Positions 1 to 22,577 of a stretch of 37,179 nt of DNA are shown here, one piece after another. The stretch is taken from IMG/VR virus record IMGVR_UViG_2909303794_000005. One strand, written 5' to 3'. Made by a program: the position numbers and the translations under genes. Below the pieces are notes generated by a model. The model saw nothing but the letters and a program-made list of their open reading frames with translations. It ran no database searches and was not told the origin of the DNA. Position 1 is the stretch's first letter. Each line of letters begins with the position of its first letter. This stretch comes from a virus (lineage: Duplodnaviria > Heunggongvirae > Uroviricota > Caudoviricetes).

Positions 1-273
1 ATGAACATCGGTAAAGCAATCATCAACTACGCAGCACGTCGCAACATGGACATTACCTTGATTGGCGATGAGGCCGTGGCGTTCTGGGAAGCGGATAACG
101 ATTGTGAATGGATGTTCTCCTACATGATTGGTAATGATGGTTTCCTCCACTTTAAAGGCAATGTGTATCTGCCGCAGGAGATTAAAGAAGAATTACCGGC
201 GTGCATCGATACAGACAAGAAGCTGAAAGAAGTAATCAACTTTATCGCTAAAGAGTTTATCAGCAAGAAGTAA
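1..273 (+). CDS. hypothetical protein, possibly 5'-truncated at window edge
   Basis: ORF begins at base 1; 90 aa, no recognisable motif. Confidence 0.35.
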   Translation: MNIGKAIINYAARRNMDITLIGDEAVAFWEADNDCEWMFSYMIGNDGFLHFKGNVYLPQEIKEELPACIDTDKKLKEVINFIAKEFISKK

Positions 274-285
274 GGCAGCAAAACA

Positions 286-672
286 ATGTTCAATATCATG
301 ATTCGTAAATTTGGTGAGATGACTTTCGAGAAAGCTGGTGTTGCGCGTACAGAAGAAGAAGCAATGGCCTTAGTTCTGGTAGCACTGAGATCATCACCTG
401 AGATTATCGACGCTGAATATGTTGCGGCTGAGGGTGAGATTAAAGAGATTAAAGCGGTGGCTAAGGAATTAGGTGTTAAAGGTTTCCGTAAGCTGAAACT
501 ATCCCGCGAGTCATATGTAATTGGTAAGCAAGGACAATACCTAGATGAGAATACCGTGATTATTCTACTGAATAAGATCACCCGCTATGGTTTCCAGATT
601 GAGCAATATAAAACGTGTTTCGAATTATACGAAAAAGGTTTGCTGGATACTCTGACCATCGTTCGCGCTTAA
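286..672 (+). CDS. hypothetical protein
   Basis: ATG at 286 with weak AAGG upstream; 128 aa, no recognisable domain. Confidence 0.4.
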   Translation: MFNIMIRKFGEMTFEKAGVARTEEEAMALVLVALRSSPEIIDAEYVAAEGEIKEIKAVAKELGVKGFRKLKLSRESYVIGKQGQYLDENTVIILLNKITRYGFQIEQYKTCFELYEKGLLDTLTIVRA

Positions 673-812
673 TTAATTTCTAATTTGGTGGGTGTAATTC
701 CCACCGCTTTTTAAATGGAGAATCAAACATGTTAGCTTTTATCTCATTCGTGGGAGGTAGTCTCACAACTATGATTAGTCTTTCTTATATTGTCGTTAGT
801 ATGGGGTGAGCA

Positions 813-938
813 ATGAAACAATTTCATGATGGCATTTCATCTAAGACATTCAAGAAAGAATATAGCGGATTGTGTATTAACTGGATTGATTTGATTGGTG
901 CGGTTGTGTTTGGTCTGGTAATTAGCATCAATTTTTAA
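813..938 (+). CDS. candidate small hydrophobic peptide (41 aa)
   Basis: ATG 813 after GGGGTGAG; translation MKQFHDGISSKTFKKEYSGLCINWIDLIGAVVFGLVISINF with hydrophobic C-terminus. Below ORF-track cutoff, speculative. Confidence 0.2.
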   Translation: MKQFHDGISSKTFKKEYSGLCINWIDLIGAVVFGLVISINF

Positions 939-983
939 CGATATAAATATATCGTAATTCAAATAACAAGAGGAAATTCTACT

Positions 984-1229
984 ATGAAAAAGATTATCGC
1001 GGGTATCGTTCTTGCTCTGGGTTTGGTTGGTGCTGCAAATGCCGAACAATATGTACAGGGTGATAGTGTCAAGCGTGCTGCCGTTGCACCTTCTTTAAAT
1101 CAACTGTGTACTGAATTAGCACAGATTGCCGGAGTTGGTGACGATGACGACTTTATTACTGCGTGTGTATGGAGTCATATCGAGGATATTAATAAACGTG
1201 ATGCAAAACTAACTGGAAAGAAATATTAA
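984..1229 (+). CDS. small secreted/periplasmic protein with Sec signal peptide
   Basis: RBS AGAGGA upstream of ATG; N-terminus MKKIIAGIVLALGLVGAANA then EQ (AxA signal peptidase I site, no lipobox); two Cys in the roughly 61 aa mature part. Confidence 0.6.
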   Translation: MKKIIAGIVLALGLVGAANAEQYVQGDSVKRAAVAPSLNQLCTELAQIAGVGDDDDFITACVWSHIEDINKRDAKLTGKKY

Positions 1230-1245
1230 TGACTTACTAACCAAT

Positions 1246-1279
1246 GCCCCTATCGTTATAATACGCGGTAGGGGCTTTT
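1246..1279 (+). terminator. rho-independent terminator
   Basis: GCCCCTA / TAGGGGC stem followed by TTTTTGTTTT directly after the 984-1229 stop. Confidence 0.6.
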
Positions 1280-1294
1280 TGTTTTGGAAATGGT

Positions 1295-2974
1295 ATGAAA
1301 ACTAAACTGTATTCGTATATTCGCTTCTCGTCTATGCGTCAGAGTGATGGTTCGAGTTATGAACGACAAATCAGGATGGCGAGAGAGATTGCGGCAAAGT
1401 ATGACCTTGAACTGGTAAATGATTATCAGGATCTGGGTGTATCTGCGTTTAAGGGTGCTAACTCCAAAACAGGGGCGCTATCTCGTTTCCTTGATGCAAT
1501 TGGTAGATCCGTTCCTGTTGGTAGCTGGCTATTCATCGAGAACTTGGACCGTTTATCCCGTGCCGATATTGTCAGTGCGCAGGAGTTATTCCTTTCAATA
1601 ATCCGTAGGGGGATAACCATTGTTACTGGCATGGATAACAAGATCTACTCGCTGGATACTGTTACCGCTAATCCGATGGACCTGATGTTCTCCATCCTTT
1701 TATTCATCCGTGGTAATGAGGAAAGCCAGACTAAGCGCAATCGTACTAACTCAAGCGCATTGATTAAGATTAAAGCTCATCAAGAAAATCCACAAAATCC
1801 GGCAGTGGCTATCGAGGAAGTTGGAAAGAATATGTGGTGGACTGATACCACTTCCGGTTATGTGCTGCCTCATCCGGTGTACTTCCCTGTTGTTCAGGAG
1901 ATTGTGGAATTACGGAAGAATGGACGTTCAACCGCCGAAATACTGGATCACCTTAACGAGACATATGCACCACCACCAGCGGTTAGTAATAAGAAGCATT
2001 CAAAATGGTCACGGGCAATGGTTGAAAGGTTGTTTCATACCCGCGCTTTGATTGGTATCAAGGAAATATCTGTAGATGGCGTTAACTATGAGTTAAAGGA
2101 TTATTACCCTCGTGTTATTGATGACCCTACGTTCTATCACCTTAAGAAAAATATTGGTGCTAGAGCATGGAACTTTGGAGACAAGGAAGAAGTTAAACCG
2201 ATCCCCCTGCTTAGTGGTATTGGCCTATTGAAATGTGATCATTGCGGTTGCGCTATGGTTAAAGTGAAGGGAACGAACAAACGTTCTGACCAGTATCGTT
2301 ATACATGTGATGCGACCCGTTCACGTAGACTTGATTGCGAGCATCCAAACTGGAGTTTTCGAGGTGATCAATTAGAGAAAGCTGTATTGCAATTGCTGGC
2401 TGATAAAATCTGGATTGCTGAGGACAAGGCTAATCCGGTTCCGGCGTTGAAAGTACAGGTTGATGAAATATCACGCAAGATTGATAACCTGATTGCCCTT
2501 TCTGCTATGACAGGAGCAACGAAGGAGCTAGCCGATCAGATTACTACCCTCAATAGCGAGCGTGAAACACTCTACAATCAGATCAAGATGGCAGAAGAGG
2601 AAATGTATTCTGTTGACTCTCAAGGCTGGGAGAAGCTCGCAGAATTTGATTTAGAAGATGTTTACAACGAGGAACGACTAAAGGTCCGGTTTAAGATTAA
2701 GCAAGCTCTAAAGCGGATCGGGTGTAGCAGGATTGACAGAAACAAAAACTTGTTTGTACTGGAATACATCGATGGAAAGACCCAGAGAGTTGTAATAGAA
2801 AATTCAAGAGGAACGAGGAAAGGACAAATCTTTGTCGATTTGAAGACCATCAATGATAGGCAGATTCTGGAGAGTAACGGGCTTGTTCTGCATCCATGTT
2901 TAGACATGCTGACAGATAAAGACTGGAAACCAGAAGAGGAAATACCAGGTCCATTACAGGAATTTGGAATTTAA
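1295..2974 (+). CDS. large serine recombinase (serine integrase/resolvase superfamily)
   Basis: N-terminal resolvase catalytic motif YIRFSSMRQ...RQ, Cys-rich zinc-ribbon segment CDHCGC...C...C, C-terminal coiled-coil; 559 aa is typical of large serine recombinases. Confidence 0.85.
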   Translation: MKTKLYSYIRFSSMRQSDGSSYERQIRMAREIAAKYDLELVNDYQDLGVSAFKGANSKTGALSRFLDAIGRSVPVGSWLFIENLDRLSRADIVSAQELFLSIIRRGITIVTGMDNKIYSLDTVTANPMDLMFSILLFIRGNEESQTKRNRTNSSALIKIKAHQENPQNPAVAIEEVGKNMWWTDTTSGYVLPHPVYFPVVQEIVELRKNGRSTAEILDHLNETYAPPPAVSNKKHSKWSRAMVERLFHTRALIGIKEISVDGVNYELKDYYPRVIDDPTFYHLKKNIGARAWNFGDKEEVKPIPLLSGIGLLKCDHCGCAMVKVKGTNKRSDQYRYTCDATRSRRLDCEHPNWSFRGDQLEKAVLQLLADKIWIAEDKANPVPALKVQVDEISRKIDNLIALSAMTGATKELADQITTLNSERETLYNQIKMAEEEMYSVDSQGWEKLAEFDLEDVYNEERLKVRFKIKQALKRIGCSRIDRNKNLFVLEYIDGKTQRVVIENSRGTRKGQIFVDLKTINDRQILESNGLVLHPCLDMLTDKDWKPEEEIPGPLQEFGI

Positions 2975-3010
2975 GCGGCCTAAATCGACGTATAACGAGC
3001 TAAACGCTTT

Positions 3011-3040
3011 AAGGGGTACATTCGTACCCCTTTTTAATTT
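3011..3040. terminator. bidirectional rho-independent terminator between convergent genes
   Basis: AGGGGTAC / GTACCCCT stem, loop ATTC, flanked by T-runs on both strands. Confidence 0.6.
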
Positions 3041-3047
3041 AATTGCG

Positions 3048-4223
3048 TTAGGCAGCGTCTAAGAGAGTATTAAAGTATTCATCCATTAAATCAGGACTGT
3101 CGTCATCAATACAGAAAAATTCTGGTTTATTGATGCCGTAGAAGTGAGTATGTAGCTTGAATGTATCCTCATCAAATACATCTTTCGGAGATACCCACAT
3201 ATTAGCCTCGTCCGGTTGATTGGTTAGGTAGTCATAAACCAGTTGTTGTAAGTGTGGTAACTCATCAATAGTCAGAGTTTCCGACCATCCATCCTTGAAA
3301 TCTTTGTAGGGTGCGGCGTGAGTCTTGAAGCGTTGTTTTACTTCATGCTCTAAATCGGCAGCTTTCCAACCATCCTCAAACTCATGAGTAAAGATTAAGC
3401 GGTGAGTGAAGTTGCTCTTTCTGGTTTGTTCTCTCATTCGTTCTTCTGGTTTTCGGGTAGTGATTCCAAATTTAATAAATTTGTCATCTAATAATTGAAT
3501 GTAGAAACTAGCCTTACCCTGATAAGTCCGGTTAGACAGTTGCACCAGTTGGTCTTTAATGCAAAGCGGACAAGTGAAAGAATCAGCACATCTTAAATGA
3601 GATTCCCATTCGTGGTTATGTGACTTGCAATAGGTTTTAAATTTAACATCCTTTAGGTGTGGGGTGTTTATGATGAATCCTTTGAAGATGTAAGGTGTAG
3701 TCTCGCAACGTGCATTGATGAGTGTCTCTTTGTCCTTAATAACTTCATCAAAAGTCTTGCCACTTCTTACCCGTTGGGATTTTTCAGCCATACAGATTTT
3801 ACAATCAAAATCAAAATCATCCTTGAGAGCATGTAATAGAGATGGCGTCATGATTTGATTGTGTATAGGACACAAAACACGGGCTTTTGTCTTGTTGCGC
3901 CCTTTCCATTCTCCTTGCCATCCTAGAAACTTCTTTCCCTTCTCATTACAACGAGATTCCATTTTCAACCATACAGCCTTTTCAGTCTGGAATAACTCAC
4001 CCCCGTTAGTATCTTCCAGTTTGCGTAATTTGTAGTCCTTATATTCTTGTGTGTCTAAATTGTATAACCGGAAGTAAGTATGATTACCTTTCCACGGTAG
4101 GATAAATCCACCAAATACAAAAGTAGGTTCCAGTTTAGTGATGATTCGTTGTTGGTACTCTTCCGGCGATAAACCGCGAGTTTTCTTAACAAAAGGAATT
4201 TCGGCAGCGTAAGCAAGTTTCAT
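3048..4223 (-). CDS. T5orf172/GIY-YIG-like domain protein with Cys-rich zinc-ribbon-like region
   Basis: Start chosen at internal ATG (MKLAYAAEIPF) with RBS GAGGA 7 nt upstream, not the upstream ATG of the 428 aa ORF. Motif FYIQLLDDKFIKFGITTRKPEERMREQ...DGWSETL matches the T5orf172 pattern from memory; CxxC pairs in the N-terminal half. Confidence 0.45.
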   Translation of the reverse strand: MKLAYAAEIPFVKKTRGLSPEEYQQRIITKLEPTFVFGGFILPWKGNHTYFRLYNLDTQEYKDYKLRKLEDTNGGELFQTEKAVWLKMESRCNEKGKKFLGWQGEWKGRNKTKARVLCPIHNQIMTPSLLHALKDDFDFDCKICMAEKSQRVRSGKTFDEVIKDKETLINARCETTPYIFKGFIINTPHLKDVKFKTYCKSHNHEWESHLRCADSFTCPLCIKDQLVQLSNRTYQGKASFYIQLLDDKFIKFGITTRKPEERMREQTRKSNFTHRLIFTHEFEDGWKAADLEHEVKQRFKTHAAPYKDFKDGWSETLTIDELPHLQQLVYDYLTNQPDEANMWVSPKDVFDEDTFKLHTHFYGINKPEFFCIDDDSPDLMDEYFNTLLDAA

Positions 4224-4378
4224 AGTAGTTTCCTCTAAAATAATAAGCTCACTACTATTTATTAGAGAAAATTGTCTTACTATTGCATTCTCTATCTGAA
4301 TGTGTATAATACGCGACCCTAAATCCCAAACCAACCATATTGAGGTTATGCCTATAAGTTAAAAAAAGTGAGGTCTAT

Positions 4379-4948
4379 ATGATTCCAGTAATGGCTAAAG
4401 ATATTGTTTTTACTCCTAAATCCTCCCGTGCTGTAACTCCATCGGCATTAGAACAACGCATTCTGACTCACATCAAAGATAAGGACTTACCATTAGTCTT
4501 TCATGGCTTTCTGGGTGAGTTTAAAGGGCTTCATTCAAGAATTGCTCTAACATGTACCCGATGCGGTAATAGAGCCGACAAATCAGCTACTAACCTGCTT
4601 AATGAAGGTAAACGATGTGTTTGCTTCAATAGTGACTACTTTCAATATAAAGCGGGTGTGCCTTATCTCTATGTAATGAAGTCTGGGGATATTGGTAAAT
4701 TTGGTGTTACAAAGTCAATCATCAAGCGACGTGTTAATCTGGGTGTACGCAATCCCGGTCATAACTTTGATATTGTCTTTGCTGGTGAAATGCCATCAAT
4801 GAAACATGCACTAGCCACTGAAAGAGCAATAAAGAGATTACTGGATGTGGGTATAGGCGGGATTGAATACGGCAAAACTGAAACATTCCACTACTGCAAT
4901 AAATCACTAAACAATATAAAGAATATTGCAAGTGTGGAGTGGAACTAA
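4379..4948 (+). CDS. T5orf172/GIY-YIG-like domain protein with zinc-ribbon-like N-terminus
   Basis: RBS GTGAGG before ATG 4379; CTRCGN...CVC cysteine cluster, then YLYVMKSGDIGKFGVTKS...RR...GKTETF resembling the T5orf172 domain. Confidence 0.45.
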   Translation: MIPVMAKDIVFTPKSSRAVTPSALEQRILTHIKDKDLPLVFHGFLGEFKGLHSRIALTCTRCGNRADKSATNLLNEGKRCVCFNSDYFQYKAGVPYLYVMKSGDIGKFGVTKSIIKRRVNLGVRNPGHNFDIVFAGEMPSMKHALATERAIKRLLDVGIGGIEYGKTETFHYCNKSLNNIKNIASVEWN

Positions 4949-6438
4949 TGCAAGATATTAAAATTCATTTTCAAGATTACAGTTTCGTTAAGGTTGATTG
5001 CTCTCCTTCTATCGGAATGGAATTAAGAGATTATTTCTCTTTTGAGGTTGAAGGGGCTAGGTTTAGCCCCCGATACAAGTATTCAGGCTGGGATGGACGA
5101 ATAAGACTGTTTACGCATGAAAATACCCTACCAATTGGACTATTAAAAACATTGGGTGTCTTCGTTAAAAATATGGGGTATTCAGTCTGGATTGACCCGC
5201 GATTGCTTGAGAAGGAAGATGTAACCAAAGAACAGATTGATTCATGGATTGACTCTTTAGAAGTGTATTCCGGTTCCAATAAAATCAATCCTTACTGGTA
5301 TCAGCGTGAGGCAGTCTTTCAGGGTATTCATAATCGCCGTAGAATGCTGGTTCTTCCTACCAGTGCGGGTAAGTCATTGATTGCTTGTATGCTGTCTCGT
5401 TGGTACTTAGAGCATTACACCGGAAAGGTGTTAATCATTGTCCCGACTACATCGCTAGTGGTTCAAATGAGGGATGATTTCATCGATTATCGGTTATTCC
5501 CTTATGAAGCAATCCATACAATGATGAGTGGTAGCGGGAAACATCCGGGAGACAGGTTAATCACGGTTAGTACCTGGCAATCAGCTTGCAAGATGCCCCC
5601 TGAATGGTTCAAACAATATGGAATGTTGATAGTTGATGAATCGCATAAGGCTAGTGCCAAAAATATTACCAATATCATCAATGGAATGAATCATTGCCAG
5701 TTTAAAATCGGCATGACTGGTTCCCCGAAAGAATCAAAATGCCATCTTTTACAGTATGTCGGGCTTTTCGGTGATATTTCTAAGATCGTGAGTATTGACC
5801 GCCTGATGGAAGAAGGCCAGGTGACAAAACTGAAAATTAACTGTCTTTTCCTTCGTTATACCGATGAGGAATGTAGCGCGGTTAAGGGTAGAGAATATGC
5901 GGAAGAGATCAAGTATATTACGTCTAACCCACGACGTAATAAGTTTGCTTGTAATTTGGCGCTAAAACTCGCTAAGAAGGGCGAAAACGTATTCCTTATG
6001 TTCCGCAATACTAAGCACGGAAAACTTATGTATGATGCGTTACAGAAGGTACACGACAAGGTTTATTATATTGACGGTGGAGTTAAGACAGAAGAACGTG
6101 ATGAATTTAAGAAAATGGCGGAGGGTGACACCGGGATCATTTGTGTTGCGTCTTATGGTGTGTTCTCTACTGGTGTTTCAATTAAGAATTTGCACCATGT
6201 TATTTTCGGTCATCCAGTGAAGGAATCAACTATCGTTCGTCAGAGTATCGGTCGTGCATTGCGTAAACATGGTTCTAAGGATATTGCAACGGTCTGGGAT
6301 CTTATCGATCATTTGTGTATATTTGGTCGTAACGGAAAAATCAAGCATAAAAATTATGCGGTAAAACATGCACTTGAGAGAATCCGCTATTATCTGACCG
6401 ACAAGTTCAGCTATGCAACTAAAACAATTGCTATATAA
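4948..6438 (+). CDS. uvsW: UvsW-like SF2 DNA helicase
   Basis: ATG 4948 overlaps the upstream stop (TAATG) with GGAG 7 nt upstream. N-terminus MQDIKIHFQDYSFVKVDC and later blocks (LPTSAGKS Walker A, DESH, VASYGVFSTGVSIKNLHH, GRALRKHGSKDIATVWDLID) closely resemble T4 UvsW as recalled. The ORF track's upstream GTG at 4939 is less likely. Confidence 0.85.
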   Translation: MQDIKIHFQDYSFVKVDCSPSIGMELRDYFSFEVEGARFSPRYKYSGWDGRIRLFTHENTLPIGLLKTLGVFVKNMGYSVWIDPRLLEKEDVTKEQIDSWIDSLEVYSGSNKINPYWYQREAVFQGIHNRRRMLVLPTSAGKSLIACMLSRWYLEHYTGKVLIIVPTTSLVVQMRDDFIDYRLFPYEAIHTMMSGSGKHPGDRLITVSTWQSACKMPPEWFKQYGMLIVDESHKASAKNITNIINGMNHCQFKIGMTGSPKESKCHLLQYVGLFGDISKIVSIDRLMEEGQVTKLKINCLFLRYTDEECSAVKGREYAEEIKYITSNPRRNKFACNLALKLAKKGENVFLMFRNTKHGKLMYDALQKVHDKVYYIDGGVKTEERDEFKKMAEGDTGIICVASYGVFSTGVSIKNLHHVIFGHPVKESTIVRQSIGRALRKHGSKDIATVWDLIDHLCIFGRNGKIKHKNYAVKHALERIRYYLTDKFSYATKTIAI

Positions 6439-6440
6439 CA

Positions 6441-6472
6441 AAAAAGCGCCCACTAGAGGCGCTTTAATTTTA
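6441..6472. terminator. bidirectional terminator between convergent helicase and lysis-region genes
   Basis: AGCGCC / GGCGCT stem flanked by an A-run upstream and TTAATTTTA downstream. Confidence 0.5.
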
Positions 6473-6823
6473 TCCATTCCATCGTGATTTTTTCGATCTG
6501 GAATCGATATGCGTAAATGTTTTATATTTTCCTAAGCCGTATTGGGTAGGATATTTCCCATCAAGATAAGCATGAACAATATCAGGTGAGACACCCTTGA
6601 TAACAATGTCAGCCGCACGGCCTCGAACATGATAGCTATTGGCTGCCCCGCCTACATTCTTGTTATGAGTCGGACAACGGTTCCCACTGTTAATAATTAC
6701 TGGTTTCCCGAAGTGTTCGCGTACATCCTCAAGAATTACCAGTAATTCAGCGTCGATTGTATCATAATCACATTTTCCACATTTACATTTAAATTCCTTG
6801 CGAGAAAAATGTTTGCTTAACAT
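6470..6823 (-). CDS. peptidase M15 family cell-wall hydrolase (putative endolysin)
   Basis: RBS AAGGGGG upstream; FSRKEFKCKCGKC...IINSGNRCPTHNKNVGG...SYHVRGRAADI...THID matches the M15 zinc-peptidase signature (His/Asp/His ligands). Confidence 0.7.
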   Translation of the reverse strand: MLSKHFSRKEFKCKCGKCDYDTIDAELLVILEDVREHFGKPVIINSGNRCPTHNKNVGGAANSYHVRGRAADIVIKGVSPDIVHAYLDGKYPTQYGLGKYKTFTHIDSRSKKSRWNG

Positions 6824-6832
6824 ATTACCCCC

Positions 6833-7180
6833 TTAGATCATTTCGAAGATATAACCAATAAAGCGCATACCCTTGATATAATAAGGAGCAGTGCCTACAC
6901 ACACCGCGCGTGCATCGCCCAGACAGTTAAAGCTATAAGGATTAACCACATCAACTTCTTGCCCTACACGAAAACGATACTTAGGACGTTTAGCCAATGT
7001 AGCGACACAAAACACGGTCCCTTTTTCATGATCGCGGATACATTCTTTATATTGTTTATGTTTAACTCTCTTCGCCTCAAAATCATAGGTCATTGATTCA
7101 GGGCTAATGCCATTAATAAAAATACCGGAAAGCTGATCGACCGGATAAGTAGGAAATTCAGTAAAAATATTTTTAGCCAT
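6833..7180 (-). CDS. hypothetical protein
   Basis: RBS GGGGGT upstream of ATG; 115 aa, tightly spaced with the M15 gene (operon-like). Confidence 0.45.
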   Translation of the reverse strand: MAKNIFTEFPTYPVDQLSGIFINGISPESMTYDFEAKRVKHKQYKECIRDHEKGTVFCVATLAKRPKYRFRVGQEVDVVNPYSFNCLGDARAVCVGTAPYYIKGMRFIGYIFEMI

Positions 7181-7218
7181 GTTATACCCCCATAAGATTC
7201 TATGAGGGTATTTATTGA

Positions 7219-7902
7219 TTAAACGTATTTCATGCGCGATTTAATGTGCTTATTGATGTTTTCAAGCATCATTGCTTCGTTGCTTTCCCACGATCCTAGC
7301 GTCGAATAACGAGTAGAAATTTTATCCGATTTAACGGCAACGATTCGCTTACTCTGTTTCTGTATGCGTTTCTCTAAGCGACGTTTTGCCACCGCCGATC
7401 CATTCCTAGCGCGTTTGGTTCGGGATTTCTTAGGCTTGTACTTCTTCATGATAAAAGTCCCTTCCTGGTTCTCTACCTTGATGAAGTTGCCATTTTCGAT
7501 GTTACGCATCATCTTACCGCCTTTGATGGCCTTAATGTTCCCGTGGGCGTCTAAGACCTTACCGTTGGCGATTGGCACTAGCTTATTGATTTTGCCACCA
7601 TCGAAATAGTGTTTCAGATAGTCATCCTGACTGCCGATCTTCTTGTCCTTATCCCTTGCGCCCTTGATGAAGATTTGGTGTCTCGTCCCTGATCGGTTCT
7701 TGTAGTTGGTATTACCTACAGCTTGCTGAGTCCAGCGAGTAGGTCTATCAACATTCTTGTTAATCTTCTTCTGTAGTGCACGAGCAGCAAAGATCGCCCC
7801 TTCCCCTATCGCCCTTTCGAATGTATCGGTTGCCTTTTCAGACCATTGCCGTAACGCTTTCTTAGTCCTTAGAGCGTTTCGTTTATTGGTACTGGTTGCC
7901 AT
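7219..7902 (-). CDS. basic Lys/Arg-rich hypothetical protein
   Basis: RBS AGGGGG upstream; 227 aa with many K/R clusters (KKYKPKKSRTKRARN); function unknown. Confidence 0.45.
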   Translation of the reverse strand: MATSTNKRNALRTKKALRQWSEKATDTFERAIGEGAIFAARALQKKINKNVDRPTRWTQQAVGNTNYKNRSGTRHQIFIKGARDKDKKIGSQDDYLKHYFDGGKINKLVPIANGKVLDAHGNIKAIKGGKMMRNIENGNFIKVENQEGTFIMKKYKPKKSRTKRARNGSAVAKRRLEKRIQKQSKRIVAVKSDKISTRYSTLGSWESNEAMMLENINKHIKSRMKYV

Positions 7903-7903
7903 G

Positions 7904-8074
7904 TTAGCCCCCTAATAACGAAAAGACCCCCGCCAGTGTCCTTAGCAATTGTTCATCCACGGTCATAGCCGGGAGTTCAAGCCCAAAGGACGTTAGCAGA
8001 GGTCTAATAGCTACGTTATAAGTGAGGGCGACAATCAAGAGATAACCAAAATATTTCTTAAGTTTATTCTTCAT
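7904..8074 (-). CDS. candidate small membrane protein (56 aa)
   Basis: Not in ORF track (under 60 aa). Strong RBS AGGGGTGA before ATG; MKNKLKKYFGYLLIVALTYNVAI... has a hydrophobic segment; stop lies next to the start of the downstream gene. Confidence 0.35.
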   Translation of the reverse strand: MKNKLKKYFGYLLIVALTYNVAIRPLLTSFGLELPAMTVDEQLLRTLAGVFSLLGG

Positions 8075-8092
8075 ATATTCACCCCTTTATTA

Positions 8093-8371
8093 TTATTTTT
8101 GTTTGAGTATGTCGAGAACTTGGTCAAATTTGGCGTCCATCGCAACCACTTTCTTCTCTATACCGTGTAGTGTTTGTTCCATTTGGTAAACACGTTCAGC
8201 AATCTGAGTATGGTTGTTCTGCATCGTCTCAAACTTCTGGTTTAACAATGCGTCGCTGGATTCCAATTTCGACAATCTATTTTCAGTTGCTAATTGATTT
8301 CGGTGAAGTCTCCAAAGACCACCGCAAATTAAGGCGATAACACCGATACCGCCATATATAATTTCAGTCAT
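8093..8371 (-). CDS. membrane-anchored coiled-coil protein (lysis-associated candidate, i-spanin- or holin-like)
   Basis: RBS GGGGGCG upstream; N-terminal hydrophobic helix GGIGVIALICGGLW followed by heptad-like coiled-coil sequence. Confidence 0.45.
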   Translation of the reverse strand: MTEIIYGGIGVIALICGGLWRLHRNQLATENRLSKLESSDALLNQKFETMQNNHTQIAERVYQMEQTLHGIEKKVVAMDAKFDQVLDILKQK

Positions 8372-8422
8372 TACGCCCCCGATATTTTTATAATTTCATG
8401 GCAGAATTATTTAGATAAAAAT

Positions 8423-8456
8423 AATCCCGCCTAACTCAAAAGAATTACGCGGGATT
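8423..8456 (-). terminator. rho-independent terminator downstream of the native tail-tip gene stop
   Basis: AATCCCGC / GCGGGATT stem followed on the minus strand by ATTTTTATCT; lies just below the reconstructed native stop at 8476-8478. Confidence 0.45.
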
Positions 8457-8524
8457 AATTATTAAAATTAAATTTTTAAGAAACAGTAATACCCGTAGTG
8501 GCTTTTTTAGTTACCATTACAGTT

Positions 8525-8533
8525 AAATCACTG
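8525..8533. repeat. IS1 target-site duplication, left copy (AAATCACTG)
   Basis: Identical 9-mer directly abuts both IS1 termini. Confidence 0.9.
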
Positions 8534-8548
8534 GGTAATGACTCCAAC

Positions 8549-19136: not shown

Positions 19137-22100
19137 TTATTTAGTTGCTTTGAGTTCGGCAATTTCTTTCTGTAATGCTTCGATCTGGGCTTTATATTTG
19201 GCGTCCATTTCCTGAATAGCTTTAATAATCAAGGCATTAACAGCGGAGTTAGAAATTGTTAAGATCTCTTCTGGCTTATCTGGATCTCCGATCTTTGAGG
19301 TTGTTACTGCTTCCGGCAATTCTTTTTCAAGATCCTGAGCAATAATACCAACTTCATGAGCAATGACAGTACGGTCGGTTAAAGACTTAACCTTATCGTA
19401 GGTGTACACAGTCAAGCGATTAATTTTATCGGTTGCATTCTCTTTATACTCTTCCTTGTTGATTTTAAGGCGAGCATCAGAACGAATATACACATCGTTA
19501 AAGTTACCATTGCGACCAGCTTGGAAATCACCGGAGGCGTTAAAGTCAAAGTTTGTGGTATGAATATGAAGACGTGCCATAGCATTAGTAATAACACCAC
19601 TAGGAACGTGTACACCCATTGCTGCGATGTGGTCTAAACCCCATTTGGTCGCTTTCCATACGTTATATGCGGAAGTTTGAGCATTAGGACAATCAACCAA
19701 TAAGCCAGCAGCGCGAGTTTTCCATTCTGACCATGCACCACCTTGTACTTCTCCGCGAATCAAACCACGGTCGCTACCGTTTGCATACCCACGTTCTAAG
19801 CGAATCATACCAGTCTGGAAAACATGGTCAAATTCTCCGCTGTTATAGTTTCGAATGCGCATTTGACCTGTGCTATCACCCCAGATAACACCACGGTTAG
19901 TACCATTAGCATCCTTAAACCAGAGTTCTTTATTACCATCTCTATACATCTGAATTTGGTTATTGGTACGCAAAACATTAGTAACCACCAAATCACCATT
20001 TATCTGAGCACGACCACCCGTTTCTAAACTACCAGCAACTCTGAATTGAATCGAACCGTTAGAATCACGCTGAGAATATAGATGATAGCTTGTTTCGTCA
20101 GCAAGTTCCCACACCTGAGCGCGAGAAGTTCCATTACCCCAATTCTTAATAAAAAATCTAGATGCAGATCCTTCGCTACGTTCCCAATATAATCGAGACC
20201 CTAAATGTGTTGTTGCATTTATTTCTACTTGACGATTTTCATTGTTGAGACGCATTAAATGATTACCAGCATCACTACCACCTAGTGTAACGTTACCATT
20301 GGCTAGGCTATAGATGAACGGCCTAAAGGTATTCCACGGACCCATAGTGTCGCCTGATTTTGTGCTCATCAGATAAACGTTACTACCGTCATTTCGCCAC
20401 CATGAACCATAGTTACCATATACAGTACGGAAGCCATCAGCATATAAAGAAATGAATTGACCGTTGGTATAGACTCGCTTCATGTTACCTGTCTGAAATT
20501 CGATCTGTCCGTCGATATGTTGACGAATAGAACTGCCACCTACATCGCTATACCATTCAAAAACGTTAGTATCAGCATTGGCATAACCGATCCAACCTTG
20601 ACGCGTAATATTTCCAGTCCGGTTATCTTGAAACGCAATGTGGTTAGATTGACCAGCAGGTCGGCGTAGTGTAATGACATTAGATCCGCCATTTAACAGC
20701 ATACGACCAGAAATAATATTACCCTTATGAGTTCCGGCAATTGAGCTACTAGATTCAATAGTCATAATTTCCTGAGCATCAGTGCTACCAGTAGCCAGAC
20801 GATAGCTGGCACCTTGAACAGTCTCATGCCAGATCATTTCATTATAGTTACTACGGAATTTACGAATATATTTTCGTCCAGTACCCCTATCATTACTCAA
20901 GTGAACAATATCATAACTGTTTTGTGTGTTATCGTCAAAACTCAACACACCACGTTTATTTTCAGTATTAAAAAGAGTTACGTTGCGACCACCGATAACA
21001 CCAACGGAAGGTTTAATTAACGTGGCTTCCGGCGTATCATAAACCGTCAAACTTACATAAACAGATTTCCCATATTCGACAATAACGTTATCGGTATAAC
21101 GCTGATATTTCACGTAGATATCATAGTTATCACCGGAAGTATTGACAGCAAATACCTCAAAATCTTTGTTTGTATTTCTACGGTATGCAATTACGTTAAG
21201 ACCTTTAGGTCTATCGTTACCACTACGCAGAAGAATTTCTACTACGTCAACCTGATCATATGCCGTAACGTTGTAACCATTACCACCATGAATACGGAAA
21301 AACACACTACGCCCGTTTTGTGGAATTGTTGCGGTTGCCAATTTGAAATATGCAGATACGTTTTCGCTAGAATTAGGAACAGACATAGTGACGTTTTTAA
21401 CAAACATCTTGTCAACTTCTGCTTTAGTGTATGCACCGATTTCGCCAGGAGTCGGCTTATCACCTTCGTGATACATCTTATAGCTAAAGTTCTTCTGTCC
21501 TTCTCTATCAAAACCATAGGTTTCAACACGAGATCCACCAGACGCATAACGGAAAGTAAATCCGCGACCGTGAGCTTTACCGGCAGAGTGAGGAACGTTA
21601 AGAGTTAGATCCATGAGTCCATCTTGACCATTGGTACGGAAAGCACCAAAGTAGTTAAGATCTCTCGCTGTCTGGTCTTCCAAATAGTTAGCTGTTTTGG
21701 TTAACAGATACCCGCCGTGCTTAGTGTTGGTATTCTTCTTGATGTAAAGAGCATCGTTACTACCTTCAATACCATCAATTCGACGGTTAGCGGCTGCGAT
21801 CGCTGAATCAGTATCAGTTTTGTTTTTGTCAACCTTTGCGTTAATAGCGGTATGGTTGCTATTCACCGTCCCTGTAAGGTTACTGATTTTAGTATCAGCA
21901 TCGCGTTTATTGTTCGCTACCGTAGTTTCAATGGCTGATTTGTTAGCTGCAACGGTACTCGTTAAGCTGGAGATCTTGGAATCAGCATCAGACTTGTTAG
22001 CTGTAACGGTTTTGGTCAGATTGCTAACATTGGTGTTAGTGGTATCAACACGGCTATTGATCGCGGTGTTATTGTCATTAACCGTCGTGGTTAAAGCTGC

Positions 22101-22577
22101 GATTTTATTGTCCGCATCTCGTTTATTATTTGCTACAGTAGTTTCTATAGCTGATTTGTTAGATGCAACTGTCCCCGTAAGGTTATTGATCTTAGTATCA
22201 GCATCGGTTTTATTTGCCGTGACTGTCTGGGTTAAGTTACTAACCGTGGTGTTAGTAGCATCAATGCGCTTATTGGTCGCTGTATCTTTCGTGGTAATAG
22301 TCTGATTCAGTTCAGCTTTAGCACTAGCCAGATTATTAGCGGCTTCTTGTTTGTTGGAAGCAATAACACGGTCAGTGCTAGTTTTGTTATTGTCTACTTT
22401 AGTGTTAAGTTCAGCGTGTTTTTCTGGAGAAACACTAATTTGGACTACGTTATTATTTTTGTCTTTGGTGTAAATCACATGATCCGCCAACTGTAAGGCG
22501 ATTTCACCCTGTGATAATTGTTCCGGCGTTGGCTTTTTACCAGCCGTCTGTGTGCGTTTAAATTGGATCGACTGCAT
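19137..22577 (-). CDS. tail fibre with C-terminal intramolecular chaperone (peptidase S74-like) domain
   Basis: RBS GTGAGGTGA upstream; 1146 aa; C-terminal SDARLK...LTDRTVIAHEVGIIAQDL...AVNALIIKAIQEMDAKY resembles the self-cleaving chaperone domain of T5 L-shaped fibre / endosialidases as recalled. Confidence 0.8.
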   Translation of the reverse strand: MQSIQFKRTQTAGKKPTPEQLSQGEIALQLADHVIYTKDKNNNVVQISVSPEKHAELNTKVDNNKTSTDRVIASNKQEAANNLASAKAELNQTITTKDTATNKRIDATNTTVSNLTQTVTANKTDADTKINNLTGTVASNKSAIETTVANNKRDADNKIAALTTTVNDNNTAINSRVDTTNTNVSNLTKTVTANKSDADSKISSLTSTVAANKSAIETTVANNKRDADTKISNLTGTVNSNHTAINAKVDKNKTDTDSAIAAANRRIDGIEGSNDALYIKKNTNTKHGGYLLTKTANYLEDQTARDLNYFGAFRTNGQDGLMDLTLNVPHSAGKAHGRGFTFRYASGGSRVETYGFDREGQKNFSYKMYHEGDKPTPGEIGAYTKAEVDKMFVKNVTMSVPNSSENVSAYFKLATATIPQNGRSVFFRIHGGNGYNVTAYDQVDVVEILLRSGNDRPKGLNVIAYRRNTNKDFEVFAVNTSGDNYDIYVKYQRYTDNVIVEYGKSVYVSLTVYDTPEATLIKPSVGVIGGRNVTLFNTENKRGVLSFDDNTQNSYDIVHLSNDRGTGRKYIRKFRSNYNEMIWHETVQGASYRLATGSTDAQEIMTIESSSSIAGTHKGNIISGRMLLNGGSNVITLRRPAGQSNHIAFQDNRTGNITRQGWIGYANADTNVFEWYSDVGGSSIRQHIDGQIEFQTGNMKRVYTNGQFISLYADGFRTVYGNYGSWWRNDGSNVYLMSTKSGDTMGPWNTFRPFIYSLANGNVTLGGSDAGNHLMRLNNENRQVEINATTHLGSRLYWERSEGSASRFFIKNWGNGTSRAQVWELADETSYHLYSQRDSNGSIQFRVAGSLETGGRAQINGDLVVTNVLRTNNQIQMYRDGNKELWFKDANGTNRGVIWGDSTGQMRIRNYNSGEFDHVFQTGMIRLERGYANGSDRGLIRGEVQGGAWSEWKTRAAGLLVDCPNAQTSAYNVWKATKWGLDHIAAMGVHVPSGVITNAMARLHIHTTNFDFNASGDFQAGRNGNFNDVYIRSDARLKINKEEYKENATDKINRLTVYTYDKVKSLTDRTVIAHEVGIIAQDLEKELPEAVTTSKIGDPDKPEEILTISNSAVNALIIKAIQEMDAKYKAQIEALQKEIAELKATK
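19140..19481 (-). other. intramolecular chaperone domain of tail fibre (predicted autoproteolytic release)
   Basis: Begins at the Ser of IR-SDARLK (residue about 1033); domain boundary inferred from the family motif. Confidence 0.55.
21831..22265 (-). repeat. in-frame tandem repeat in tail fibre N-terminal shaft
   Basis: Two near-identical 72-73 aa units (DATNTTVSNLTQTVTANKTDADTKINNLTGTV... and DTTNTNVSNLTKTVTANKSDADSKISSLTSTV...) with about 24 aa sub-periodicity. Confidence 0.6.

Follow-up and report, generated by a model that had tools for sequence, protein, structure and literature searches.

Two CapR–T5orf172 genes between a recombinase and a helicase

The DNA analysed here (the window; 37,179 nucleotides, IMG/VR record IMGVR_UViG_2909303794_000005, Caudoviricetes) is the left part of an Escherichia coli prophage integrated in ycdX beside the csg operon. 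Between a large serine recombinase gene and a UvsW-like DNA helicase gene it carries two divergently transcribed open reading frames (ORFs), ORF1 (3048..4223, minus strand, 391 residues, ATG start, MKLAYAA...) and ORF2 (4379..4948, plus strand, 189 residues). Both are intact, as a first-pass annotation made from the letters alone had described. Each encodes CapR zinc modules or a single such module followed by a T5orf172-type nuclease domain of the GIY-YIG superfamily, and we regard this family assignment as secure for both proteins.

ORF1 contains three CapR-type modules, the T5orf172/GIY-YIG-type domain and an acidic tail modelled with low confidence. Its first module (residues 1-85; 3969..4223, minus strand), delimited by alignments and hhalign, is a degenerate CapR-like module without Cys and is homologous to the N-terminus of ORF2 and to the first canonical CapR repeat of a 348-residue paralogue in the related prophage L003 (NZ_CP069522). 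On the same strand follow CapR zinc module 1 (residues 87-150; 3774..3965; C118-x2-H121...C141-x2-C144) and CapR zinc module 2 (residues 165-225; 3549..3731; C199-x2-H202...C218-x2-C221), which match each other with an hhalign probability of 98.6%. The nuclease domain (T5orf172/MUG113, GIY-YIG fold; residues 238-330; 3234..3512, minus strand) has the core Y241, K251-F-G253, R262, E292 and G312-W-S-E315. ORF1 exceeded the Pfam gathering thresholds of CapR (PF21817; 39.8 bits, E-value 5e-10, in two stretches, threshold 24.2), MUG113 (PF13455; 26.4 against 22.3 bits) and T5orf172 (PF10544; 20.6 against 20 bits), and matched the PHROG 681 'endonuclease' family with an E-value of 1.8e-42.

ORF2 consists of one CapR zinc module (residues 33-85; 4475..4633, plus strand; C59-x2-C62...C80-x-C82) and a T5orf172-like, GIY-YIG-fold domain (residues 93-175; 4655..4903, plus strand) with the core Y98, K107-F-G109, R117, E148 and G165-K-T-E168. 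In NCBI's PGAP annotation the start codon of ORF2 is the ATG at 4391, giving 185 residues. The reading of 189 residues is plausible, because GAGG (4370-4373) lies 5 nt before the ATG at 4379 and distant alleles retain MIPVMA. The Pfam CapR match was barely over threshold (24.8 against 24.2 bits, E-value 2.4e-5). Membership of the T5orf172 family follows from transitive evidence: ORF2 matched PHROG 681 with an E-value of 2.5e-18, its homologue P0018 has a precomputed PF10544 match, relatives of equal size (P0031, P0035, P0040 and P0046) exceed the T5orf172/MUG113 thresholds, and hhalign joined ORF2 to the ORF1 nuclease domain with an E-value of 1.3e-5. An exhaustive search with the ORF2-family profile recovered 1715 cluster representatives at E <= 1e-3. 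These are mostly proteins of 300-470 residues with 2-5 (up to 10) CapR repeat matches followed by the nuclease domain, and the relatives sampled carry Pfam T5orf172/MUG113.

The motifs picked out in the first-pass annotation, FIKFGITTRKPEER...GWSETL and IGKFGVTKS...GKTETF, are present in the proteins, and the Cys clusters it had pointed to are real and conserved: the zinc ligands, C-H-C-C in ORF1 and C-C-C-C in ORF2, are invariant in the family alignments. The CapR and PHROG 681 matches of the two proteins go well beyond what chance would give. The T5orf172-like cores it had proposed were borne out by the PHROG matches and by a diverse domain alignment of 26 sequences, in which seven positions (Y, K, G, R, E, G and E) are invariant and all seven are kept in both ORFs. 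A profile of these 26 domains matched the GIY-YIG proteins 1ywl (E-value 8e-4) and 1zg2 (E-value 2e-3), and in that alignment the family Tyr coincides with that of the GIY motif, and its Arg and Glu with the motif Arg and Glu. Where 'YIG' has the second Tyr, the family of ORF1 and ORF2 has K-[FV]-G. The full-length ORF1 profile, run against PDB sequences, gave only a spurious zinc-finger-like match, and a search of NCBIfam returned nothing useful. AlphaFold (AF2) models, built on shallow alignments (a word-indexed search gave 11-16 close relatives and a second alignment round one more), were confident for both proteins, with predicted local distance difference test scores (pLDDT) of 85.4 and 83.6. 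In these models both proteins have the alpha/beta fold of GIY-YIG nucleases, which agrees with the structural expectation of the first-pass annotation, and PD-T4-3, a GIY-YIG defence nuclease, is among the structural neighbours.

ORF1 and ORF2 share 19-33% identity, in patches only, and their N-termini align with an hhalign E-value of 6e-8. The two proteins are, to judge from these comparisons, old and distant paralogues. The patchy identity and the lack of a long DNA inverted repeat ruled out that one gene had recently been duplicated in tandem or inverted orientation; the description of a 'duplicated, divergent pair' thus stood for the divergent paralogues and failed for a local duplication. 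Both ORFs are intact in all six window-type genomes compared, and the ratio of nonsynonymous to synonymous substitution rates (dN/dS) in these genomes was 0.15 for ORF1, 0.11 for ORF2, 0.17 for the recombinase and 0.06 for the helicase. Both genes are under purifying selection.

Replacement and loss of alleles at the two slots

Related prophages were surveyed in 55 complete E. coli genomes with the common recombinase 3' end and in draft E. coli and Salmonella assemblies. Among the 55 genomes, 11 had both genes, 1 had another ORF1 allele, 4 had a double deletion, and 39 remained; in the four looked at among these 39 (L004-L007), the slot was empty or contained a different paralogue or a truncated ORF1. 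The slots of ORF1 and ORF2 are therefore polymorphic among related prophages, being swapped, deleted or empty, which was the outcome that a presence/absence check suggested in the first-pass annotation would look for.

In the 11 window-type genomes, ORF1 follows the recombinase and ORF2 stands with the helicase. The prophage L003 has a 337-residue paralogue (37% identical) in the slot after the recombinase, together with an ORF2 that is 95% identical, the helicase and UvsY. The prophage L008, from draft genomes, has a 390-residue paralogue (31%), an ORF2 allele of 46% identity, a helicase of 84% identity and UvsY. In Salmonella, L011 and L015 carry ORF1 homologues of 65% and 40% identity, respectively, and a 186-residue ORF2 homologue (53% in L011) with the helicase. 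L004 and L005 have a 332-residue paralogue (32% in L004) and neither ORF2 nor the helicase, L012 and L014 have other ORF1-type alleles with other neighbours, and L006 has nothing in the slot and neither ORF2 nor the helicase. The recombinase and lysin of L004 are 100% identical to those of the window, yet its ORF1 paralogue is just 32% identical.

Nucleotide homology between prophages ends at the ORF1 stop (3051-3062) and resumes at the start codon and the region upstream of it (4219-4271), the break at this end lying at 4219-4221. For ORF2, homology across prophages covers the first ~13 and the last ~24 codons only. The 3' end of ORF2 (4877..4948, plus strand, ..TETFHYCNKSLNNIKNIASVEWN) is conserved at the nucleotide level with the helicase though the body is replaced by the 46% identical allele, and this end is therefore a recombination boundary. 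Because homology is confined to the ends of the coding sequences and their flanks, the coding bodies behave as cassettes between conserved flanks. In L018 and L019, ORF1-ORF2 are 93-100% identical to the window and the 5' half of the recombinase is ~74% identical, with an identity gradient running into the recombinase. Co-conversion of the flanks could leave such an island and gradient, and breakpoints at the ends of the coding sequences, but so could ordinary mosaic recombination.

Alleles of the two genes assort independently. An obligate two-component system made up of both was considered and rejected, given that L003 joins a 95% identical ORF2 to a 37% identical ORF1 paralogue and that ORF2 is missing beside the ORF1-type genes of L004, L005, L012 and L014.

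Both nuclease genes are missing from 4 of the 16 genomes with the helicase module found among 5426 complete E. coli genomes. The ORF1 deletion (L002, L021 and L022) leaves MKLAYAA*, that is, the first seven codons and a stop, and lies at a microhomology between 3048..3058 (TTAGGCAGCGT) and a repeat at 4200-4210 (TTCGGCAGCGT), with the consensus TT[A/C]GGCAGCGT. The ORF2 deletion leaves the last 36 codons and lies at a microhomology between 4296..4304 (CTGAATGTG) and 4841-4849 (CTGGATGTG), with the consensus CTG[A/G]ATGTG. The intergenic region is intact between the two deletions. The junctions are identical in three deleted genomes from the USA, China and Egypt (L002, L021 and L022). A single doubly deleted phage lineage has spread, and therefore both genes are accessory and dispensable. 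The gene-less allele of L002 was also considered as the ancestral empty target, which was ruled out by the remnants of ORF1 and ORF2 at the microhomology junctions. In the fourth deleted genome (H76/H130, NZ_CP122768), an IS1 element is additionally inserted in the remnant region (compare L002:6076-6352).

Several further arrangements were seen in the related prophages. L003 has a third gene with three CapR modules and a T5orf172 domain upstream of the recombinase (L003:3322-4368, plus strand, 348 residues; CapR 1e-28, PHROG 681 2e-73); at the corresponding position the window (~984-1229) has only an 81-residue ORF with a signal-peptide-like N-terminus. In L007 (NZ_CP015229), a 138-residue truncated ORF1 homologue (L007:5647-6063, minus strand) keeps the nuclease domain only (MUG113 7e-5) and is cut off by an IS3-family insertion, which is another route of gene loss. 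In L012, a 165-residue protein with a Pfam Phage_Inh_N match (L012:4451-4948, plus strand) stands in place of ORF2 and the helicase, and this neighbour suggests that the region is a general slot for accessory or conflict genes.

Flanking genes and prophage setting

The recombinase gene (1295..2974, plus strand, 559 residues) encodes the prophage integrase (Pfam Recombinase and Zn_ribbon_recom; PHROG 95 integrase) and is convergent with ORF1; a GC-rich, terminator-like hairpin (3011..3032) lies between the two. All ORF1-family genes found are directly downstream of the recombinase gene. The UvsW-like helicase gene (4948..6438, plus strand; UvsW_N 1.4e-34) starts within the stop of ORF2 (TAATG), and ORF2 alleles were found solely alongside the helicase. 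The helicase resembles T4 UvsW and is encoded here by a temperate siphovirus-like prophage; the helicase module is rare in E. coli. Relatives encode UvsY just downstream of the helicase (L003:9536-9703 and L008:8103-8510), and the window is without UvsY.

ORF1 and ORF2 share a divergent control region (4224..4378), which carries the ribosome-binding site of ORF1 (GAGGAAA, minus strand) as well as the GAGG ahead of ORF2. This region stays conserved while the coding bodies on both sides are swapped. A plus-strand promoter read by eye, TTGCAT (4283-4288) and TATAAT (4305-4310) separated by 16 nt, is a plausible candidate; a simple sigma-70 scan of the intergenic region flagged no promoter.

The prophage of NZ_AP027850 matches window positions 1-8533 at 98% identity, and siphovirus-type head and tail genes are present. 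The window opens at the junction of prophage and chromosome (1-40; compare L001:2720-3100). ycdX is split by the serine recombinase, and all lysogens examined have it annotated as a truncated pseudogene; recombinases related to this one are found elsewhere, in hicB (L006) and in codB (L007). A complete IS1 copy (768 bp) at 8534-9301, with the InsA/InsB ORFs at 8549-9246, is flanked by a 9-bp target duplication (AAATCACTG) at 8525-8533 and 9302-9310. The insertion immediately precedes the tail-tip gene, and the NZ_AP027850 prophage, otherwise 98% identical, does not have it. The C-terminal half of a 1146-residue tail-fibre protein (19137-22577, minus strand) matches families of the T4-type long-tail-fibre distal subunit (PHROG 1699, 1.8e-143), so that this protein is a mosaic with receptor-binding modules of virulent phages.

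Known counterparts and predicted function

The closest described architecture is that of the putative homing endonucleases of phage ICP1 (Gp53, Gp121, Gp130, Gp165 and Gp174), which combine CapR-type repeats with T5orf172 (Netter 2021, PMC8096241; Barth 2023, PMC10448857). Of 229 T5orf172 homing endonuclease genes in the published study, 95 carried CapR domains, many of them repeated (PMC8096241; PMC10448857), and such nucleases lie at the boundaries of genetic exchange (Barth 2023, PMC10448857). Compared by published description, the ICP1 nucleases and the present proteins share N-terminal tandem CapR modules, a C-terminal T5orf172 domain, a variable repeat number, several paralogues per genome and a location at boundaries of exchange. 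However, ICP1 is a lytic vibriophage and the present genes belong to a temperate E. coli/Salmonella prophage. In addition, the published CapR motif is CxxC-(24-26)-CxC (PMC8096241), whereas the ORF1 modules use C-x2-H...C-x2-C with spacers of 15-19 residues instead of 24-26, and the first ORF1 module has lost its zinc ligands.

The best phage tblastn matches to ORF1 were PHROG 681 proteins of T4-like coliphages (Phi1/RB49-type, JK32 and Whisky; 27-29% identity over 80-86%) and of T5 (28% over 63%), the T5 match including the region after which T5orf172 is named. These relatives, often present in several copies per genome and annotated as hypothetical or as endonuclease, differ in belonging to virulent phages, and all are below 30% identity. 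The 2.2-kb region had no nucleotide match in the phage and plasmid collections searched; the element is known only as a chromosomal prophage. Odn (ICP1 Gp88, the origin-directed nuclease) is an experimentally active T5orf172 nuclease that retains the Arg and Glu, with E180A used as the catalytic mutant (PMC8263062). It has the same nuclease domain family as ORF1 and ORF2 and demonstrates DNase activity of this domain, which a swap of the DNA-binding domain can re-target; unlike the present proteins, it has a RepA_N DNA-binding domain and a satellite origin as its target. In I-TevI, T4 Seg and SLX1/UPF0213 the domain order is reversed, the DNA-binding modules being N-terminal here. The present proteins also differ from classical GIY-YIG nucleases in having K-[FV]-G for YIG and a G-x-[TS]-E motif after the helix of the catalytic Glu.

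We predict, as somewhat more likely than not, that ORF1 and ORF2 are site-specific endonucleases of the free-standing homing type, with cleavage as their expected activity. This is proposed because the catalytic core is intact, the genes are under purifying selection and dispensable, several paralogues occur per genome, and alleles are replaced at fixed sites. Presence/absence and allele polymorphism at one locus among similar genomes, as expected of homing endonuclease genes, were found. A specific DNA site would be read by the CapR modules at the N-terminus (one in ORF2; three in ORF1, of which the first is without ligands), and the tethered C-terminal GIY-YIG-type domain with its Tyr/Arg/Glu core would cut nearby DNA in related genomes without that allele. 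The cut genome would then acquire the gene with its flanks on being repaired by recombination with the genome that carries the nuclease, or the rival genome would simply be disadvantaged. The selfish or defence/counter-defence roles suggested in the first-pass annotation likewise gain support at the level of sequence.

Several observations weigh against homing-type endonucleases. ORF2 stayed below the Pfam T5orf172 threshold (13.8 against 20 bits, E-value 0.088), so that the profile check proposed at the outset was passed by ORF1, for T5orf172 and MUG113, and failed by ORF2 for T5orf172; MUG113 was not listed for ORF2 at E <= 1 in the Pfam search. A Foldseek search against the PDB returned nothing for ORF2. 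In E. coli and Salmonella the ORF1 family is always tied to the recombinase 3' end and ORF2 to the helicase, and this constant synteny could fit a conserved function for the host phage rather than a roaming selfish gene. The gene-less alleles in the helicase lineage are deletion derivatives and not naive target sites. Ordinary recombination between phages likewise generates mosaic breakpoints and gradients of identity.

It is possible, if unlikely, that the nucleases are kept as weapons that cut superinfecting relatives or satellites, as Odn acts against PLE, and that the allele diversity reflects an arms race over target specificity. The mechanism would overlap with that of homing, and the two are inseparable by sequence alone. 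The accessory slot beside the integrase, the hypervariable alleles on near-identical backbones, purifying selection instead of decay, the neighbouring PD-T4-3 structure and the precedent of Odn, in which a T5orf172 nuclease has had its DNA-binding domain exchanged (PMC8263062), all point in this direction. However, no defence family of PADLOC-DB v2 matched ORF1, the L003 paralogue or ORF2 at E <= 0.1, and the deleted lineage spreads well without the genes.

We consider it rather improbable that the proteins are domesticated, nuclease-independent DNA-binding regulators of the divergent promoter, the helicase operon or the recombinase, comparable to PLE CapR or to the repressor mode of I-TevI. 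CapR-domain proteins can be sequence-specific repressors (PMC8096241), and PLE CapR, the repressor of the capsid operon in a V. cholerae satellite, shares the CapR zinc-finger DNA-binding domain (PF21817). The two genes flank a common control region that is conserved while the coding bodies change, the synteny with recombinase and helicase is stable across genera, and ORF2 appears to be translationally coupled to the helicase. However, PLE CapR is a 15.5-kDa protein without a nuclease domain (PMC8096241), whereas both ORFs keep the T5orf172 domain with all invariant core residues. Identical recombinases occur with 32% identical alleles or with none, which is hard to square with an essential regulator, and the helicase lineage survives the loss of both genes.

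Directionality factors of serine integrases come from unrelated protein families, and wherever the ORF1 family occurs in E. coli and Salmonella it lies next to the recombinase in convergent orientation, but a role of the ORF1 family as an accessory factor of the serine recombinase, such as a recombination directionality factor, is very improbable, as there is no co-variation (a 100% identical recombinase stands beside a 32% identical ORF1 paralogue) and L006-type and deletion-type prophages are without the gene altogether.

The slots downstream of the recombinase and upstream of the helicase might be dedicated 'nuclease cassettes' of ycdX-integrating prophages. Interchangeable CapR-T5orf172 alleles of differing DNA specificity would act in them as allele-specific weapons or gene drives between competing temperate phages that share an attachment site, and a self-contained unit for cutting and repair would consist of ORF2 with the UvsW-like helicase and, in relatives, UvsY. 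We put this forward as a speculative and unlikely extension.

No new kind of system is described here; the locus illustrates published ideas on nuclease genes at recombination boundaries and will not surprise a specialist. Most work on T5orf172-type endonucleases has been done in the lytic vibriophage ICP1, and the same CapR-T5orf172 architecture is found here in temperate enterobacterial prophages. The population record is unusually clean, with at least four very divergent alleles at exactly one site on near-identical backbones, and the locus is a convenient E. coli system for testing cutting, targets and exchange or exclusion between prophages.

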